Origin: a virus
Lineage: Duplodnaviria; Heunggongvirae; Uroviricota; Caudoviricetes
DNA length: 24,431 nucleotides
Virus record (IMG/VR): IMGVR_UViG_2663762939_000013
Reading direction: 5' to 3' (one strand)
Every line of letters begins with the position of its first letter. The stretch's first letter is position 1. Shown piece by piece: positions 6,006-19,051 of this stretch. Both the position numbers and the translations under genes were made by a program. A model generated the notes under the pieces. That model saw nothing but the letters and a program-made list of their open reading frames with translations, did not search any database and was not told the origin of the DNA.

Positions 6006-7200
<1,195 letters not shown>

Positions 7201-7767
7201 ATAGGTATGTATGACTTGCATGGAAGTTTTATTCATTCGTTTTTTCTTGCCAGCTCCATGCTCACTGATAATGGTTTAGCTACGCAGGATTATGCAAGTT
7301 GGCCCACGCACACGATAGTGTTTTTGCTGTTGTCAAGTTTCTTTGGGGGATGTATAGGTTCAACTTGTGGTGGAATTAAGTCACTTCGATTTCTTATACT
7401 TTTCAAACAAAGCAAACACGAGATAAATCAGCTTTCTCATCCCAGAGCGTTGTTGAGTGTAAATGTAGGAGGGAAGATAGTTACAGATCGTGTAATGAGG
7501 TCTGTATGGAGTTTCTTTTTTCTTTATACTCTCTTCACGGTGTTTTTTATACTGGTGTTAAATGGTATGGGATATGATTTTCTTACATCATTTGCAACAG
7601 TGGCTGCATGTATTAATAATATGGGATTAGGTTTTGGGGCTACTGCATCGTCATTCGGAGTGCTTAATGACATTGCAAAATGTTTAATGTGCATAGCTAT
7701 GATTCTTGGTCGCCTTGAAATTTATCCTGTTATTATATTGTTTTCAGGTTTTTTTTGGCGCTCCTAA
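7201..7767 (+). pseudogene. trkG: 3' fragment of trkG (Trk K+ uptake protein, TrkH paralogue), C-terminal 188 codons only
   Basis: Frame opens exactly at the IS5 boundary; membrane-protein translation with the GGCIGSTCGGIK motif typical of TrkH/TrkG; visibly AT-rich; no N-terminal part present. Confidence 0.8.
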
Positions 7768-7904: not shown

Positions 7905-8696
7905 ATGAGCGAGAAATTAAAGATAGTCTATCGCCCATTACAAGAATTGTCACCGTATGCGCACAACGCCAGGACGCACAGTACTGAGCAGGTGGCACAA
8001 CTGGTAGAAAGTATTAAGCAATTCGGCTGGACTAATCCGGTGCTGATTGACGAAAAGGGCGAAATTATTGCGGGTCACGGTCGTGTTATGGCGGCTGAAA
8101 TGCTCAAAATGGATTCTGTTCCGGTCATTGTTCTGTCTGGCCTGACGGATGAGCAGAAAAAGGCGTACCGCCTGGCAGATAATCGCCTGCCGATGAATGC
8201 TGGCTGGGATGAAGATCTGTTGCGGATGGAGCTGTCGGACCTAATCAATGCTGATTTTGATGTCTCCCTGACAGGCTTCATCCCGACAGAAATTGATGAA
8301 CTGTTGACGGATGTTTTGCCCGGTACAGGAAATGAGGAGGAGCCGTATACGACGAAAATTGATACGCCTGTTTATGAGCCGTCGGGCGGTAAACCGGATA
8401 TCAGTGAACTGTACGACGATACGAAAACTCAGGAGCTGATCAGCCGGATACGTTCGGCGTCCCTTGAGCCTGATATTGAGAAATTCCTCCTGTGTGCGGC
8501 AGAACGTCACACGGTGTTTAATTTCAGCAGAATTGCGGACTATTACGCTCACGCCCCCTCTGAAATTCAGTGTTTTTTCGAGGAGTCGGCGCTGGTGATC
8601 ATTGATTATCAGCAGGCTATTGAAAATGGATTTGTCCGGATGACGCAGCGCATGGTGGAGATCATGCATGGTGGTGAGGAGGAGGAATATGCGTGA
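7905..8696 (+). CDS. ParB-like nuclease domain protein (ParB/Srx N-terminal domain), 263 aa; positional equivalent of K-12 Rac ynaK
   Basis: N-terminus KIVYRPLQELSPYAHNARTHSTEQVAQLVESIKQFGWTNPVLIDEKGEIIAGHGRVMAAEMLKMDSVPVIVL is a classic ParB N-terminal domain pattern; stop codon overlaps start of next gene (ATGCGTGA). Confidence 0.8.
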   Translation: MSEKLKIVYRPLQELSPYAHNARTHSTEQVAQLVESIKQFGWTNPVLIDEKGEIIAGHGRVMAAEMLKMDSVPVIVLSGLTDEQKKAYRLADNRLPMNAGWDEDLLRMELSDLINADFDVSLTGFIPTEIDELLTDVLPGTGNEEEPYTTKIDTPVYEPSGGKPDISELYDDTKTQELISRIRSASLEPDIEKFLLCAAERHTVFNFSRIADYYAHAPSEIQCFFEESALVIIDYQQAIENGFVRMTQRMVEIMHGGEEEEYA

Positions 8697-9621
8697 TGAT
8701 TTTTGCGCCTTTATTCTGACTCACGGGCGACCGGACAAAGTTCTGACTTACCGGACGTTGCGTCGTGCTGGCTATACCGGGAAAATTTTTATCGTTGTTG
8801 ATGATGAAGATAAGACACGGCATCAGTACATGGCTGAATTTGGTGAACAGGTGCTGGTGTTTTCCAAAGCCGATATCGCCAGTCGTTTTGACGAAGCCGA
8901 TAATTTCTGTGACCGCCGCTCAATTTTTTACGCCCGTAATGCCTGTTTCGACCTGGCAAAACTGGTCGGGTGTAAATACTTCATTCAGCTCGATGATGAT
9001 TATCACGAGTTCCAGTTTCGGGTGGATCGCAACTATGACCAGGCCTATTTTCCGATAAGGAAACTGGATGCGATCCTTTCTGAAATGCTGGCGTACTACG
9101 AATCAATACCTGCTCTTTCCATCGCTATGTCGCAGGGCGGGGATTTTCTTGGTGACAATGGCGGCCATGCTTCGTGGGTGAAACGCAAGGCAATGAACAG
9201 CTTTATCTGTTCGGTTGATCGACCGTTCTCATTCATGGGGCGCATTAACGAGGATGTGAATACGTACACGAATCTCGGTCGCTGTGGTGAATTGTTTATG
9301 ACGATCGGTGCTGTCCAGTTAGGGCAGAAACAGACGCAGAAAAACAGCGGCGGAATGACCGAGCTGTATCTGGATTCCGGAACCTACGTTAAAAGTTTTT
9401 ACTCCGTCATGTATGCGCCGTCGTGCGTAAAAATCTCACTGATGGGTGCCAGCCATAAACGCATTCACCATCAGGTCACCTGGAACAACGCTGCAGTAAA
9501 AATCCTTCACGAAAAATACAGGAAGAAGACACCCTGCATATCAATGGGGGTGACAAATGATTCCGTATTCGAAAGTCGAGTCTCTGGCAGCGTGCCGGAT
9601 GACTGCACAACAAATCGCTGA
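8689..9621 (+). CDS. Uncharacterised 310-aa protein, translationally coupled to the ParB-like gene; possible GT-A-like transferase (tentative)
   Basis: ATG at 8689 preceded by GGAGGAGGAA; motifs FILTHGRPDKVL, IFIVVDDEDK and YFIQLDDDYHEF spaced like the N-terminal strand / DxD signatures of GT-A fold enzymes. No fold assignment was possible here; function unknown. Confidence 0.7.
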   Translation: MRDDFCAFILTHGRPDKVLTYRTLRRAGYTGKIFIVVDDEDKTRHQYMAEFGEQVLVFSKADIASRFDEADNFCDRRSIFYARNACFDLAKLVGCKYFIQLDDDYHEFQFRVDRNYDQAYFPIRKLDAILSEMLAYYESIPALSIAMSQGGDFLGDNGGHASWVKRKAMNSFICSVDRPFSFMGRINEDVNTYTNLGRCGELFMTIGAVQLGQKQTQKNSGGMTELYLDSGTYVKSFYSVMYAPSCVKISLMGASHKRIHHQVTWNNAAVKILHEKYRKKTPCISMGVTNDSVFESRVSGSVPDDCTTNR

Positions 9622-9808
9622 CGTTCTGGATGTTGATCTGAACCGACTGAAAGAAAATCGGGAAGCAATGACAGATTTTTATGCGGCCATCCGTAAGGGC
9701 AGAGCGAAAGGTGAAGCCGAGTTACGAGCGGCATTGTTTAAGCTTGCCAGAAAAGGGGATGCCTTTGCTCTGCGCGAACTACTCAGGGTGGATAAAAATC
9801 AGGACTAA
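9557..9808 (+). CDS. Small helix-turn-helix-like protein, 83 aa (possible packaging or regulatory DNA-binding protein)
   Basis: ATG at 9557 preceded by GGGGGTGA; sequence ...MTAQQIADVLDVDLNRLKENREAM... resembles an HTH; overlaps 3' end of the upstream gene by 65 nt (alternative start at 9599 gives a 23-nt overlap); stop 3 nt before TerS start. Confidence 0.5.
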   Translation: MIPYSKVESLAACRMTAQQIADVLDVDLNRLKENREAMTDFYAAIRKGRAKGEAELRAALFKLARKGDAFALRELLRVDKNQD

Positions 9809-9811
9809 CTG

Positions 9812-10906
9812 ATGAGCAGACCGGACTGGGGGGCGTTGCAGCAGGAGTATATTGCTGAATACACCCGCTCCGGTATATCTCCGGTGGCATGGTGTGAAGC
9901 AAGGGGACTGAATTACGCAACAGCCCGTCGTTACATCAAAAAAACTCCGAAAAATGCGCAGACAGAAATGTGCAAAACTGCGCAAAAAAGTGCGCAGAAA
10001 AAATCTGCGCAGACTGCACAAAAGCGGAACGAAAAATCTCAGGAAAAAAAGCCAGTATTCGATGCGGGCCTGAATGAGGGCGACGCGGAGGAATTTTCGT
10101 TCTGTCCCGATGAATTCGGCATTTCTGACCAGCAGGCTAAGTTTGCGATGCTTGTTGCTCAGGGTAAAAAGCCGACAGAGGCGTACCGACTAGCCGGTTA
10201 TGAGGGGCAAGGTGCGACAGCTAATAGCAACGCCAGTCGTATGCTTAGAAATGCCAGGGTTTTTCGCGCTATCAGCTACTTCCGCAATCAGTACCAGAAA
10301 CGCTATACCGCAGACCTGGATTTACTAGTGAGTCAGTTGATGGCCATTGTCCTGGCCGACCCCAATCAGCTTGCACAATTTCGCCGTGTTAACTGCCGTT
10401 ATTGCTGGGGCGAGAATCATCTCTACCAGTGGCGCGATATAGCAGAATTCGACAAGGCAGCGGCGCAGGCTTCCAGAGATGGCAAACCCGAACCGGAATA
10501 TGGAGGCCTCGGCTTTGTTGATAACGCCATACCCAATCCGGACTGCCCGAAGTGCTGCGGTGAGGGAACGGGACAGCTTTATATGGCTGATACCACTCTG
10601 CTTGATGGGGATGCGCGGCAATTATATGCAGGGGCAAAATTCGGAAAATTCGGCGTTGAGATCCTGCTGGAGGATAAGGCTGCCGCCCGGCGTGAATTGT
10701 TGCGTTTGCTTTCTGCTGGCGGGGCTTTATGTGCAGATAAGCGGCTACAGGAACTGGAAATTGAACGGCGCAGAATGGAAAACCAGAAGCTGCGCAAAGA
10801 GATCGAAACGGTGGAAGATAATGAACATCCCCAGCCTGTGGCGATCAATATTAATGTGGTTGATGCCAGAGTAAGGAGTGATGAAGATGATCTCTCCGAC
10901 GCTTAA
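9812..10906 (+). CDS. Terminase small subunit (Terminase_2/P27-like core) with N-terminal extension, CxxC...CxxC zinc ribbon and C-terminal coiled coil, 364 aa
   Basis: Core QQAKFAMLVAQGKKPTEAYRLAGYEGQGATANSNASRMLRNARVFRAI matches the conserved terminase small subunit pattern; NCRYCWGENH...DCPKCCGEG zinc-ribbon-like cysteines; immediately upstream of and overlapping the large terminase. Confidence 0.8.
   Translation: MSRPDWGALQQEYIAEYTRSGISPVAWCEARGLNYATARRYIKKTPKNAQTEMCKTAQKSAQKKSAQTAQKRNEKSQEKKPVFDAGLNEGDAEEFSFCPDEFGISDQQAKFAMLVAQGKKPTEAYRLAGYEGQGATANSNASRMLRNARVFRAISYFRNQYQKRYTADLDLLVSQLMAIVLADPNQLAQFRRVNCRYCWGENHLYQWRDIAEFDKAAAQASRDGKPEPEYGGLGFVDNAIPNPDCPKCCGEGTGQLYMADTTLLDGDARQLYAGAKFGKFGVEILLEDKAAARRELLRLLSAGGALCADKRLQELEIERRRMENQKLRKEIETVEDNEHPQPVAININVVDARVRSDEDDLSDA
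9955..10020 (+). repeat. Array of six TGCGCA/TGTGCA/TGCACA palindromic hexamers inside the TerS gene (candidate pac/TerS-binding repeats; also encodes an AQK peptide repeat)
   Basis: Hexamers start at 9955, 9969, 9979, 9991, 10006, 10015 (spacing 9-15 bp); protein here reads NAQTEMCKTAQKSAQKKSAQTAQK. Confidence 0.5.
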
Positions 10907-12188
10907 TGTGCCTCAGGCGCGATTTCTTTCAATGCCCCATAAATTTAAAGCCTATATTGCTGGTTTTGGCTCGGGCAAAACATGGGTTGGGTGTGGCGGC
11001 ATATGCAAGGGGATTTGGGAGCATCCAGGTATAAATCAGGGATATTTTGCGCCAACGTATCCCCAAATTCGCGATATTTTTTACCCTACAGTGGAAGAAG
11101 TTGCTGCTGACTGGGGATTGAACGTAAAAATTAATGAGGGAAATAAAGAGGTTCACTTTTATTACGGACGCCAGTATCGGGGAACCACTATCTGCAGATC
11201 GATGGAGAAGCCACAAACGATCGTCGGTTTCAAAATTGGTAATGCGTTGGTGGATGAACTGGACATTTTGCCGAAGGAAAAAGCCAGAACGGCGTGGCGC
11301 AAGATAATTGCACGTATGCGTTATAAGATTGATGGACTTCGCAACGGTATTGACGTTACAACCACGCCGGAAGGATTCAAATTTGTCTACGAGCAGTTTG
11401 TTAAAGCCGTGCGTGAAAAAACAGAGCTGGCCTCACTGTATGGTCTGGTGCAGGCATCTACTTTCGATAATGAAAAGAACCTGCCAGCAGATTACATTCC
11501 TTCGCTTCTTGAATCATACCCTCCAGAGCTGATTAAAGCCTATCTTCGAGGACAGTTTACTAACCTGACAAGTGGTACTGTTTACCATCAGTTTGACCGG
11601 AAACTGAATAATTGCGAAGAAGTGGAGCAGCCAGGGGAGCCGATTTATATTGGGATGGATTTTAACGTTGGAAAGATGGCGGGAATCGTCCATGTGCTGC
11701 GTTTGGGGCTTCCATGTGCGGTAACTGAAATCATCAATGCCTACGATACGCCGGATATGATCCGCATCATTAAAGAACGCTTCTGGCTGTATGATGGGAA
11801 TGATTACCGGAAAGTGAGGGAAATTTATATTTATCCAGATGCTTCCGGGGATTCCAGAAAATCAAGTAACGCAAGTACGACGGATATAGCCCAGCTTAAG
11901 CAGGCTGGTTTTAACGTTGTGGTGAACAGCTCGAACCCGCCAGTAAAAGATCGCGTTAACTCAATGAATGCAATGTTCTGCAATGCCAATGGTGAGCGTC
12001 GCTATAAAGTTAATGTGAAGCGTTGCCCGTTATATGCCGAATCTCTGGAGCAACAGGTCTGGGATGAGAAGGGGGAGCCTGATAAAAAATCTGGCAATGA
12101 TCACCCGAATGATGCCGGAGGTTATTTCATCGTTAAGCAATTCCCTATTGTCAAACCGACCGGAAGAGTCACATCACTTCGGATTTAA
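10887..12188 (+). CDS. Terminase large subunit (ATPase/nuclease)
   Basis: Walker A motif AGFGSGKTW near N-terminus; ATG at 10887 has AAGGAG 8 nt upstream (in-frame GTG/ATG at 10878/10881 also possible); follows TerS; about 430 aa. Confidence 0.9.
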   Translation: MISPTLNVPQARFLSMPHKFKAYIAGFGSGKTWVGCGGICKGIWEHPGINQGYFAPTYPQIRDIFYPTVEEVAADWGLNVKINEGNKEVHFYYGRQYRGTTICRSMEKPQTIVGFKIGNALVDELDILPKEKARTAWRKIIARMRYKIDGLRNGIDVTTTPEGFKFVYEQFVKAVREKTELASLYGLVQASTFDNEKNLPADYIPSLLESYPPELIKAYLRGQFTNLTSGTVYHQFDRKLNNCEEVEQPGEPIYIGMDFNVGKMAGIVHVLRLGLPCAVTEIINAYDTPDMIRIIKERFWLYDGNDYRKVREIYIYPDASGDSRKSSNASTTDIAQLKQAGFNVVVNSSNPPVKDRVNSMNAMFCNANGERRYKVNVKRCPLYAESLEQQVWDEKGEPDKKSGNDHPNDAGGYFIVKQFPIVKPTGRVTSLRI

Positions 12189-17731: not shown

Positions 17732-18637
17732 CTATATTTCCAGACATCTGTTATCACTTAACCCATTACAAGCCCGCTGCCGCAGATATTCCCGTGGCGA
17801 GCGATAACCCAGCGCACTATGCGGATGCCATTCGTTATAATGCTCGAACGCCTCTGCAAGGTTCTTTGCTGCCGTTAACCCGTCTGGTTTGGGCATGATA
17901 CTGATGTAGTCACGCTTTATCGTTTTCACGAAGCTCTCTGCTATTCCGTTACTCTCCGGACTCCGCACCGCCGTGTTCTTCGGTTCAAGTCCCAACATCC
18001 GGGCGAACTGGCGTGTTTCATTAGCCCGGTAGCATGAACCATTATCCGTCAGCCACTCCACTGGAGACGACGGAAGATCGTTGCCGAAGCGGCGTTCCAC
18101 CGCTCCCAGCATGACGTCCTGTACTGTTTCACTGTTGAAGCCGCCGGTAGTGACCGCCCAGTGCAGTGCCTCACGATCACAGCAGTCCAGCGCGAACGTG
18201 ACACGCAGTCTCTCTCCGTTATCACAGCAGAACTCGAACCCGTCAGAGCACCATCGCTGATTGCTTTCTTTCACGGCCACTCTGCCTGTATGTGCCCGTT
18301 TCGATGGCGGTACAGCAGGTTTTCGCTCAAGCAACAGCGCATTCTGGCGCATGATCCGGTAAACACGTTTGGCATTGATCGCAGGCATACCATCAAGTTC
18401 TGCCTGTCTGCGAAGCAGCGCCCATACCCGACGATAACCATACGTTGGCAGCTCTCCGATAACATGGTGTATACGGAGAAGCACATCCGTATCATCAGTG
18501 TGACGACTGCGGCGGCCATCCATCCAGTCATCGGTTCGTCTGAGAATGACGTGCAACTGCGCACGCGACACCCGGAGACAACGGCTGACTAAGCTTACTC
18601 CCCATCCCCGGGCAATAAGGGCGCGTGCGCTATCCAC
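17732..18637 (-). CDS. insD: IS2 transposase InsD (orfB), 301 aa
   Basis: Translation [37 protein letters not shown]... ending ...NRCLEI recognised as IS2 InsD; overlaps insC, consistent with the frameshift fusion arrangement. Confidence 0.95.
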
Positions 18638-18960
18638 TTTTTTGCCCGTCCATATTCAACGGCTTCTTTGAGGAGTTCATTTTCCATCGTTTTCTTGCCG
18701 AGCAGGCGCTGGAGTTCTTTAATCTGCTTCATGGCGGCAGCAAGTTCAGAGGCAGGAACAACCTGTTCTCCGGCGGCGACAGCAGTAAGACTTCCTTCCT
18801 GGTATTGCTTACGCCAGAGAAATAACTGGCTGGCTGCTACACCATGTTGCCGGGCAACGAGGGAGACCGTCATCCCCGGTTCAAAGCTCTGCTGAACAAT
18901 TGCGATCTTTTCCTGTGTGGTACGCCGTCTGCGTTTCTCCGGCCCTAAGACATCAATCAT
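18595..18960 (-). CDS. insC: IS2 InsC (orfA) HTH protein, 121 aa
   Basis: [56 protein letters not shown]... recognised as IS2 InsC. Confidence 0.95.
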
Positions 18961-19051
18961 CTGTTCTCCAATGACTAGTCTAAAAACTAGTATTAAGACT
19001 ATCACTTATTTAAGTGATATTGGTTGTCTGGAGATTCAGGGGGCCAGTCTA

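Follow-up and report, generated by a model that had tools for sequence, protein, structure and literature searches.

A small terminase of a common Escherichia coli Rac-type prophage carries a putative metal-binding insert and a candidate packaging-site array in its linker-coding sequence

The gene at positions 9812 to 10906 of the tailed-phage record IMGVR_UViG_2663762939_000013 (24,431 nucleotides, hereafter called the window) encodes the small terminase subunit, TerS, of a Rac-type prophage. We think it probable that this is a functional Rac-type TerS assembled as a three-module mosaic: a core with a putative zinc-binding insert, a C-terminal module, and an N-terminal cassette in which an accessory helix-turn-helix (HTH) domain is followed by a linker whose coding DNA holds an array of candidate packaging (pac) boxes. 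More tentatively, HTH and array may form a portable, self-addressed packaging-specificity cassette, the binding sites of the HTH lying directly downstream in the same ORF and being translated into its tether. Such a cassette would have been swapped between unrelated TerS cores (Rac-type with the zinc insert, phage pPE4, and 933W and the Shiga toxin (Stx) phages), re-targeting headful packaging, and the tetra-cysteine insert would be a new metal-stapled fold on the outside of the TerS ring as a decoration. Two descriptive points appear to be new: the motif array hidden in linker-coding sequence, as a pac-site candidate, and a large TerS subfamily with an uncharacterised, putatively metal-binding fold.

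Results

Identity and domain order of the TerS protein

An earlier note, made from the letters of the sequence alone, had called this open reading frame (ORF) an atypically long terminase small subunit. The identification was borne out. Pfam Terminase_2 (PF03592; SF6/SPP1 G1P-type) matches the protein with 35.1 bits against a gathering score of 26.1 (E 2.4e-8), the PHROG 51 'terminase small subunit' profile matches over its full length (E 2.4e-76), and RefSeq WP_000089448.1 is a 'terminase small subunit' by name. The gene order is also that of a small terminase, since terS overlaps the large terminase (TerL) gene and head-morphogenesis genes lie downstream. By these matches the ORF is the genuine TerS of a common E. 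coli Rac-type prophage, an annotation that already existed and is correct. The gene itself is common: 10 phage records hold DNA of the terS region (9500-11000) at 100.0% or 99.8% identity, and close matches to it (at least 80% identity) occur in 906 of 5,426 complete E. coli genomes.

The domain order of the protein is HTH-1, linker, core with the tetra-cysteine insert, then a long helix and an acidic tail. Boundaries were taken from an AlphaFold2 (AF2) model of the monomer, built with an 86-sequence alignment, whose mean predicted local distance difference test score (pLDDT) is 85.9, with 95-98 over amino acids (aa) 100-300. The features within the gene are as follows.

9812..10906, + strand: terS ORF, stop codon included (ATG start, 364 aa; from the ORF list)
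9824..9946, + strand: N-terminal accessory HTH, HTH-1, aa 5-45 (AF2, tblastn)
9947..10105, + strand: basic disordered inter-domain linker with 'AQK' repeats, aa 46-98 (pLDDT, composition)
9950..10023, no strand assigned: DNA motif array, candidate pac recognition boxes (Tandem Repeats Finder (TRF), k-mer scan, synonymous resampling)
10124..10249, + strand: Terminase_2-type HTH DNA-binding domain, HTH-2, aa 105-146 (AF2, aa 106-146)
10253..10354, + strand: long helix, aa 148-181 (AF2, pLDDT 95-98)
10367..10597, + strand: putative Zn-binding beta-rich insertion, aa 186-262 (Cys conservation, AF2)
10394-10396, 10403-10405, 10544-10546 and 10553-10555, + strand: codons of the putative ligands C195, C198, C245 and C248
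10625..10669, + strand: beta-hairpin as in SF6-type TerS, aa 272-286 (AF2 strands 272-278 and 281-286)
10676..10903, + strand: C-terminal long charged helix, aa 289-337, and disordered acidic tail, aa 338-364 (AF2)

A DNA motif array in the linker-coding sequence

The 'AQK low-complexity linker' described in the earlier note does exist, and the model leaves it disordered within aa 64-87 (pLDDT below 50 at aa 64-71 and 76-87), but the repeat is encoded by an array of DNA motifs. The peptide is the translation of aaaaCTGCGCAaaa, present four times together with one variant between 9955 and 10020. The palindrome TGCGCA stands at 9955, 9979, 9991 and 10006, and TGCACA at 10015; four of the 15 copies of TGCGCA in the window (24.4 kb) lie within 57 bp. 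An unbiased 6-mer cluster scan of the whole window ranked this region first, and scans of 9400-11000 for inverted and direct repeats returned only short, chance-level pairs apart from it. Each Ala-Gln follows a codon with T in third position, despite the varied amino acid that this codon encodes (N, T, S, S, T).

Such arrays recur in distant relatives. We compared 29 divergent IMG/VR loci (L055-L083), 28 of them at 40-55% aa identity and one, L070, at 62% over aa 97-302. The relatives at 40-55% carry 4-7 motif copies at the same position, often all or most of those found in 7 kb (6/6 in each of L057, L073 and L074). The motif differs by lineage, being TGCGCA, TGCGAATTCGCA, GTACGC, or GTTTCCAC/GTGGAAAC. 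In the first group the consensus is aaaaaaCTGCGCARaaa, with the hexamer embedded in A-runs and a modal spacing of 12 nt. TGCGAATTCGCA is a 12-bp palindrome that encodes the peptide ANSQ, GTACGC occurs in relatives with a second HTH type, and Actinobacillus phage vB_Apl-pPE4 (pPE4) has GTTTCCAC twice and the reverse complement GTGGAAA(C/G) twice. A long-form Klebsiella phage has 8 motif copies, and no such array is seen in F116 or Bcep22, which have the short form of TerS and lack HTH-1.

The reading frame of the motif is not fixed. Forty-seven copies of TGCGCA are split 36, 4 and 7 among the frames xxT-GCG-CAx (AQ), xTG-CGC-Axx (L/M/V-R-x) and TGC-GCA (CA), and GTACGC is read as GTA-CGC (VR) or xGT-ACG-Cxx (G/S-T-Q). 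When the linker protein was held fixed and codons were drawn from each locus's own usage (20,000 draws), 0.07-0.83 copies were expected against the 4-7 observed. The observed count was reached in 0-5 of 20,000 resamplings per locus for the window, 14 IMG/VR relatives and pPE4 (L003), and in 2/20000 for the window itself, counts that are optimistic because each motif was chosen after the fact for being the most frequent k-mer. Support is weaker for Stx phage 933W (L084; 155/20,000). By these tests a short motif recurs in a tight group within terS and is under constraint as DNA, as in P1- and P22-like pac sites, and the 'AQK' peptide repeat would be largely a by-product of this DNA element.

Could the array instead lack any cis function, being a slippage-prone coding tract selected as a flexible basic tether, with the motif left by recent duplication of a unit? 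TRF does report an imperfect tandem repeat with periods 12 and 36, close relatives differ in the length of the linker and in how many repeats it has, and richness in Lys and AAA is what a basic tether should show. We nonetheless hold this explanation to be quite improbable. The hexamer does not vary, unlike its spacers, spacing and flanking codons; it is read in three frames that give different peptides; and TGCGCA is kept in lineages that are 40-55% identical in protein. The presence of both orientations in pPE4 (GTTTCCAC, GTGGAAAC) is not a product of slippage, and the observed counts are seldom if ever attained when synonymous codons are resampled. Diversity of frame and orientation, together with persistence across lineages, therefore argues against slippage alone.

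Covariation of the array with the N-terminal HTH

HTH-1 is predicted as three helices (aa 6-20, 24-30 and 35-38, pLDDT 88-95), with ...YATARRYIKK as the putative recognition helix. A tblastn search located the same domain at the start of TerS in 220 phage records, 933W and VT2-Sakai among them, and the sole match of the N-terminal part in Pfam and NCBIfam scans was a sub-threshold one to the NCBIfam IS66 TnpA HTH. The confident helices and the homology to the N-terminus of 933W and other Stx-phage TerS proteins support the earlier suggestion of an HTH-like extension.

The motif identity follows the HTH-1 sequence. An ARRYIKK helix accompanies TGCGCA in 9/9 loci (including one ARRHIKK and one ARRYIKN variant), and an AKRYIK[IV] helix accompanies TGCGAATTCGCA in 7/7. 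In pPE4 a near-identical core is preceded by another HTH and another array, which indicates that the cassette was swapped as a unit. The pPE4 gene (L003, 2707-3798) has a terS core that is 93.6% identical in DNA to that of the E. coli prophage, and the phage is recorded from Actinobacillus pleuropneumoniae; this observation points either to a very recent cross-family exchange or to a questionable host attribution.

We propose that the array is a pac recognition site read by HTH-1, because the pac sites of P22 and P1 provide a precedent and because the array travels with the HTH and matches its sequence type. The earlier suggestion of an extra DNA-recognition function is plausible on these grounds, the strongest hint being that the array in the linker-coding DNA co-varies with the extra HTH. 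Several points weigh against this proposal. In addition to the post hoc choice of motifs, the covariation could be a clade marker, as only two clades carry it, and recently slipped repeat units would share codons without selection. The link to packaging is itself drawn from sequence, and the prophage copy in the window has been degraded by insertion sequence (IS) elements, so that its function must be judged from identical copies elsewhere.

The array could also be a cis site of another kind: an operator through which the late or packaging operon regulates itself, a sequence bound by the small HTH protein of the ORF just before terS (9599-9808), or a substrate for DNA modification by the neighbouring ParB-like and glycosyltransferase genes. 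A TerS-like HTH ORF does lie directly upstream of terS (PHROG 309, E 8e-23), ParB_N and TET-associated glycosyltransferase (TAGT) genes adjoin, and TGCGCA contains GCGC, a common methylation target. We consider such a role improbable, since the array accompanies HTH-1 in phages without those neighbours (933W, pPE4 and Klebsiella phages), the upstream ORF is found in close relatives only, and it is to HTH-1 that the motif corresponds.

A conserved tetra-cysteine insert in the core

The earlier note had also pointed to an embedded CxxC...CxxCC cluster, quoting NCRYCWGENH (aa 194-203) and DCPKCCGEG (aa 244-252); both peptides are present in the ORF, which has nine cysteines (positions 28, 54, 98, 195, 198, 245, 248, 249 and 307). 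Four of these are nearly invariant. An HMMER search with aa 95-364 returned 1,641 clusters at 50% identity with E <= 1e-3 and 1,203 with E <= 1e-10, and conservation was counted in the top 149 cluster representatives. C195 and C198 are kept in 147/149, C245 in 135/149 and C248 in 136/149, with all four retained in 135/149, a count that sets aside the possibility, raised by the note itself, that the cysteines are not conserved. The motif is more accurately CxxC...CxxC. C249, considered as a fifth ligand, was rejected, being kept in only 16/149 representatives.

Around these residues the model places a strand (188-193), the C195/C198 knuckle, a helix (210-222), the C245/C248 knuckle and a strand (253-258), with pLDDT 95-98 in the whole-protein model and 93.9 when the insert is modelled alone. 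Across 86 sequences of 27-52% identity, C195, R196, C198, G200, C245, C248, G250, G252 and G274 are invariant, the same Cys, Arg and Gly positions are invariant in a 45-sequence alignment of the domain, and the family signature reads RRxNCRxCWGxxHxYQW...GGxGF...PNPxCPxCxGEG. We infer an embedded tetra-cysteine metal site, most likely for Zn. The two conserved CxxC pairs, as expected of a zinc ribbon or knuckle, make the case for a metal site strong, and the 'zinc ribbon' fold class is not established. The insert matched nothing in Pfam or NCBIfam, the DnaJ_CXXCXGXG Pfam profile included, and a PDB fold search found no neighbour and no likeness to known DNA-binding Zn modules or Zn-ribbon families. 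The second knuckle (CPKCCGEG) fits CxxCxGxG, and the first (CRYCWGEN) fits CxxCxG only.

The putative Zn insert is a hallmark of a large TerS subfamily (>1,200 clusters) rather than a peculiarity of this gene. Its role is most likely structural or in assembly, with the insert decorating the TerS ring as a rigid, metal-stapled unit, a role that we favour over one in specificity because the insert is near-invariant across hosts and in relatives that swap their other modules. Two considerations count against this reading: metal binding is deduced from the sequence, and the domain could contact DNA or TerL rather than being purely structural, given that R196 is invariant and basic residues are conserved at 191-192.

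The first of these contacts leads to a further alternative, in which the additional recognition of DNA falls to the Zn insert and not to the N-terminal HTH, so that the insert would read pac like a zinc finger, by analogy with those of the herpesvirus subunits pUL28/pUL56. The invariant R196 between the first two cysteines and the consensus RR just before them (191-192) would suit such a role, herpesvirus TerS-like subunits do use Zn fingers (PMC9611059), and most family members have only the insert, without HTH-1. We regard the idea as doubtful, though somewhat less so than a slippage origin or another cis role for the array. It has to contend with the lack of fold or sequence likeness to known DNA-binding Zn modules and with the high conservation of the insert across phages of very different hosts, unlike a specificity determinant; in close relatives the insert is 100% conserved while the N-terminal cassette is swapped.

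Protein length and the three-module mosaic

The Terminase_2-like core proposed in the earlier note is upheld by a Pfam match above the gathering score and by alignment to SF6 TerS (3zqp), and the N-terminal HTH DNA-binding domain of the G1P fold is present. The Terminase_2 match spreads aa 122-321 over profile positions 19-129 (111 positions), which implies about 90 extra residues inside the domain. The 86-member family profile matches 3zqp in two pieces, positions 9-92 to residues 21-103 and positions 187-223 to residues 117-153, so that ~95 profile positions stand in for 14 SF6 residues. The helix at aa 148-181 aligns with the SF6 chain up to residue 103 and is the counterpart of the first oligomerisation helix of SF6-type TerS; the beta-hairpin at 272-286 corresponds to the second aligned stretch. 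This is a variant architecture and not the compact protomer of ~140-165 aa with a short hairpin between oligomerisation helices.

Solved phage TerS structures are of 15-21 kDa (PMC9611059), and beside them the protein is indeed atypically long, as the earlier note held. In its own family, whose 149 representatives have a median protein length of 256 aa, the Zn insert is the norm, and 28 of 135 representatives (about 20%) are extended at the N-terminus by 60 aa or more. The length is the sum of a family-wide insertion and a recurrent N-terminal cassette. In close relatives aa ~99-295 are essentially identical while the N-terminal ~98 aa and the C-terminal ~69 aa are exchanged, with recombination junctions around the conserved core near 10106 and 10696. 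On these comparisons TerS is a mosaic of a core (aa ~99-295), an N-terminal cassette (1-98) and a C-terminal module (296-364).

The note had allowed that the ORF might be a fusion artefact of two genes, or of annotation, in which an HTH gene is joined to a TerS of ~250 aa. We find this scarcely credible. In its favour, the annotation of Rac-SA53 reads 'gpOterS; fusion of two genes by deletion', PHROGs 29114 and 32222 match fragments, and the N-terminal part is missing from most family members. The SA53 remark, however, concerns a deletion derivative with different first ~50 residues, not the present form, and the 363-364-aa form is the dominant cluster (1423, 414 and 357 members). In all 29 divergent loci the HTH, linker and Zn-core lie in one continuous ORF of 330-380 aa, and an in-frame HTH and core also occur in Klebsiella phages; the fusion was accordingly rejected.

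Among the database entries, three clusters (P0006, P0029 and P0033; 565-616 aa) have TerS joined either to the TAGT glycosyltransferase encoded upstream or to a protein of the tail fibre; errors of gene calling or assembly, or frameshifts, probably account for them. Another protein, P0041, is 95% identical and carries the label 'MAG: Varibaculum sp.', which raises the same alternatives of recent exchange or doubtful host attribution as pPE4 does.

The C-terminal module and its pairing with TerL

The C-terminal segment quoted in the earlier note as a coiled coil (LQELEIERRRMENQKLRKEIETVED, aa 312-336) falls within a predicted helix of 49 residues (289-337), followed by a tail with pLDDT of about 50. 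The data do not demonstrate a coiled coil: heptad a/d enrichment was matched by 1070/5000 shuffles and is not significant. Pfam and NCBIfam scans of the tail gave no match.

A TerL-docking tail is established for several TerS proteins. The C-terminal module here is exchanged at about 10696, and in 39/39 distinct TerS/TerL pairs each of its two tail variants goes with its own type of TerL (one of 436 aa, the other of 442 aa, at 67% identity to each other). The helix and tail are probably a TerL-docking module, although the same pairing is also expected from simple physical adjacency of the two genes.

Prophage context

10878..12188, + strand: large terminase gene (Pfam Terminase_6N 3.7e-33, Terminase_6C 3.4e-10; annotation)

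The TerL gene, whose start is GTG 10878 in the ORF list and 10887 in RefSeq, overlaps the 3' end of terS and is followed by portal (DUF4055), MuF-like and P22-type coat genes. Upstream of terS are a ParB_N-domain gene (7905-8696), the TAGT gene (8668-9621) and a small ORF (9557/9599-9808), and further upstream an integrase, recT, recE, an IS transposase and a truncated trkG. From this gene set and from an annotated E. coli match (trkG, ydaY) the element is recognised as a lambdoid prophage of the Rac type.

This prophage copy is IS-damaged and its terS is intact. A DDE_Tnp_1 transposase (6152-7168, - strand) abuts the truncated trkG (7186-7767, + strand), of which only the C-terminal 193 aa remain (the full gene is present in E. 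coli 7/2), and an IS3-type pair of HTH_Tnp_1 and rve ORFs (17732-19005, - strand) splits the head-tail gene block.

The TAGT gene matches Pfam TAGT and PHROG 842 'beta-glucosyl-HMC-alpha-glucosyltransferase', and the ParB_N and TAGT genes directly upstream of the packaging genes may together serve to hypermodify DNA; near them we saw no gene for a TET/JBP protein or a methyltransferase. The small ORF encodes 83 aa from 9557, or 69 aa from the RefSeq start at 9599. Its match to PHROG 309 'terminase small subunit' covers profile positions 145-218 of 319, which suggests a second, free-standing TerS-like helical or HTH protein. The 69-aa form has no PDB relative, and its phage homologues are in close relatives only.

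Discussion

Our data are consistent with a model in which the core is an SF6/SPP1 G1P-like TerS with its HTH, oligomerisation helix and beta-hairpin, and in which the short hairpin loop of SF6 has been replaced by a beta-rich domain of ~80-95 residues. That domain would be held by a single tetra-Cys metal site formed by the knuckles CRxCWG and CPxCxGEG, and would rigidly decorate the TerS ring. Residues 1-98 would contribute a further HTH, held by a tether that is basic and flexible, and the DNA of the tether contains 4-5 copies of aaaaCTGCGCAaaa at a spacing of roughly one helical turn. In this model the copies serve as pac boxes, to which the additional HTHs of the assembled ring bind, the peptide repeat follows from the cis-acting site, and HTH and array travel jointly as a specificity cassette. 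Residues 296-364 would dock the cognate large terminase, whose gene overlaps terS.

Compared with SF6/SPP1 G1P (3zqp, 2cmp), the 164-aa chain of 3zqp is answered here by 364 aa, with the tetra-Cys beta-rich domain where SF6 has its 14 residues, an N-terminal HTH and linker of ~100 aa, and a longer C-terminal helix. Closer to home are the PHROG 51 TerS proteins of F116, Bcep22, BcepIL02, PEp14 and Klebsiella temperate phages, which have the same Zn-insert core at 32-52% identity and are all annotated as TerS. Those of F116 and Bcep22 are of the short form (259-271 aa), whereas Klebsiella and Yersinia phages have the long form, as here. The TerS of 933W and VT2-Sakai (PHROG 370) shares the N-terminal HTH at ~40% identity, but its core is unrelated and lacks both a Terminase_2 match and the Zn insert, and its DNA motif differs. 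The 933W linker, KIDHEIDHKTDHEIDHD, consists of IDHE repeats encoded by four copies of GATCAT at an exact 12-nt period (L084, ~2639-2683); these motifs contain Dam sites and recall the TGATCA/G hexamers of the P1 pac site.

The pac site of P22 lies inside its terS (gene 3), and that of P1, in pacA, comprises seven hexanucleotide repeats (PMC11260489). The array described here likewise lies inside the TerS gene; the P1 and P22 sites were mapped experimentally, while ours is a candidate deduced from sequence comparison. Unlike them, it coincides with the coding sequence of an inter-domain linker, directly after the HTH that we propose as its reader. In a literature search we found no description of such arrays, of TGCGCA as a pac motif or of the 933W pac site, but subscription journals were thinly covered, and a prior description is possible.

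Zinc fingers are known in the genome-recognition terminase subunits pUL28/pUL56 of herpesviruses, the only subunits for which a 2022 review of TerS names them (PMC9611059). Those are all-alpha proteins of ~85 kDa with no sequence or fold relationship to the TerS described here. Our search found no Zn site described in a phage TerS, with the same thin coverage of subscription journals and the same possibility of an earlier account. More than 1,200 TerS clusters with a conserved tetra-Cys domain are without a solved structure or a Pfam model.

How TerS recognizes pac is a long-standing problem. In vitro, TerS binds weakly and for the most part without specificity, and mapped pac sites are few (PMC9611059); that of ES18 is still unknown (PMC11260489). 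The family described here supplies a concrete candidate pac site with a candidate reader domain encoded beside it, and a set of candidate natural specificity swaps (TGCGCA, TGCGAATTCGCA, GTACGC, GTTTCCAC and GATCAT). The question also bears on gene transfer. Rac-type prophages are found in about 17% of complete E. coli genomes, the LT-II toxin phage Rac-SA53 has the Zn-insert core, and Stx phages have the HTH and array cassette. If our proposal is true, each exchange of the cassette would re-target headful packaging, and hence lateral or generalised transduction.

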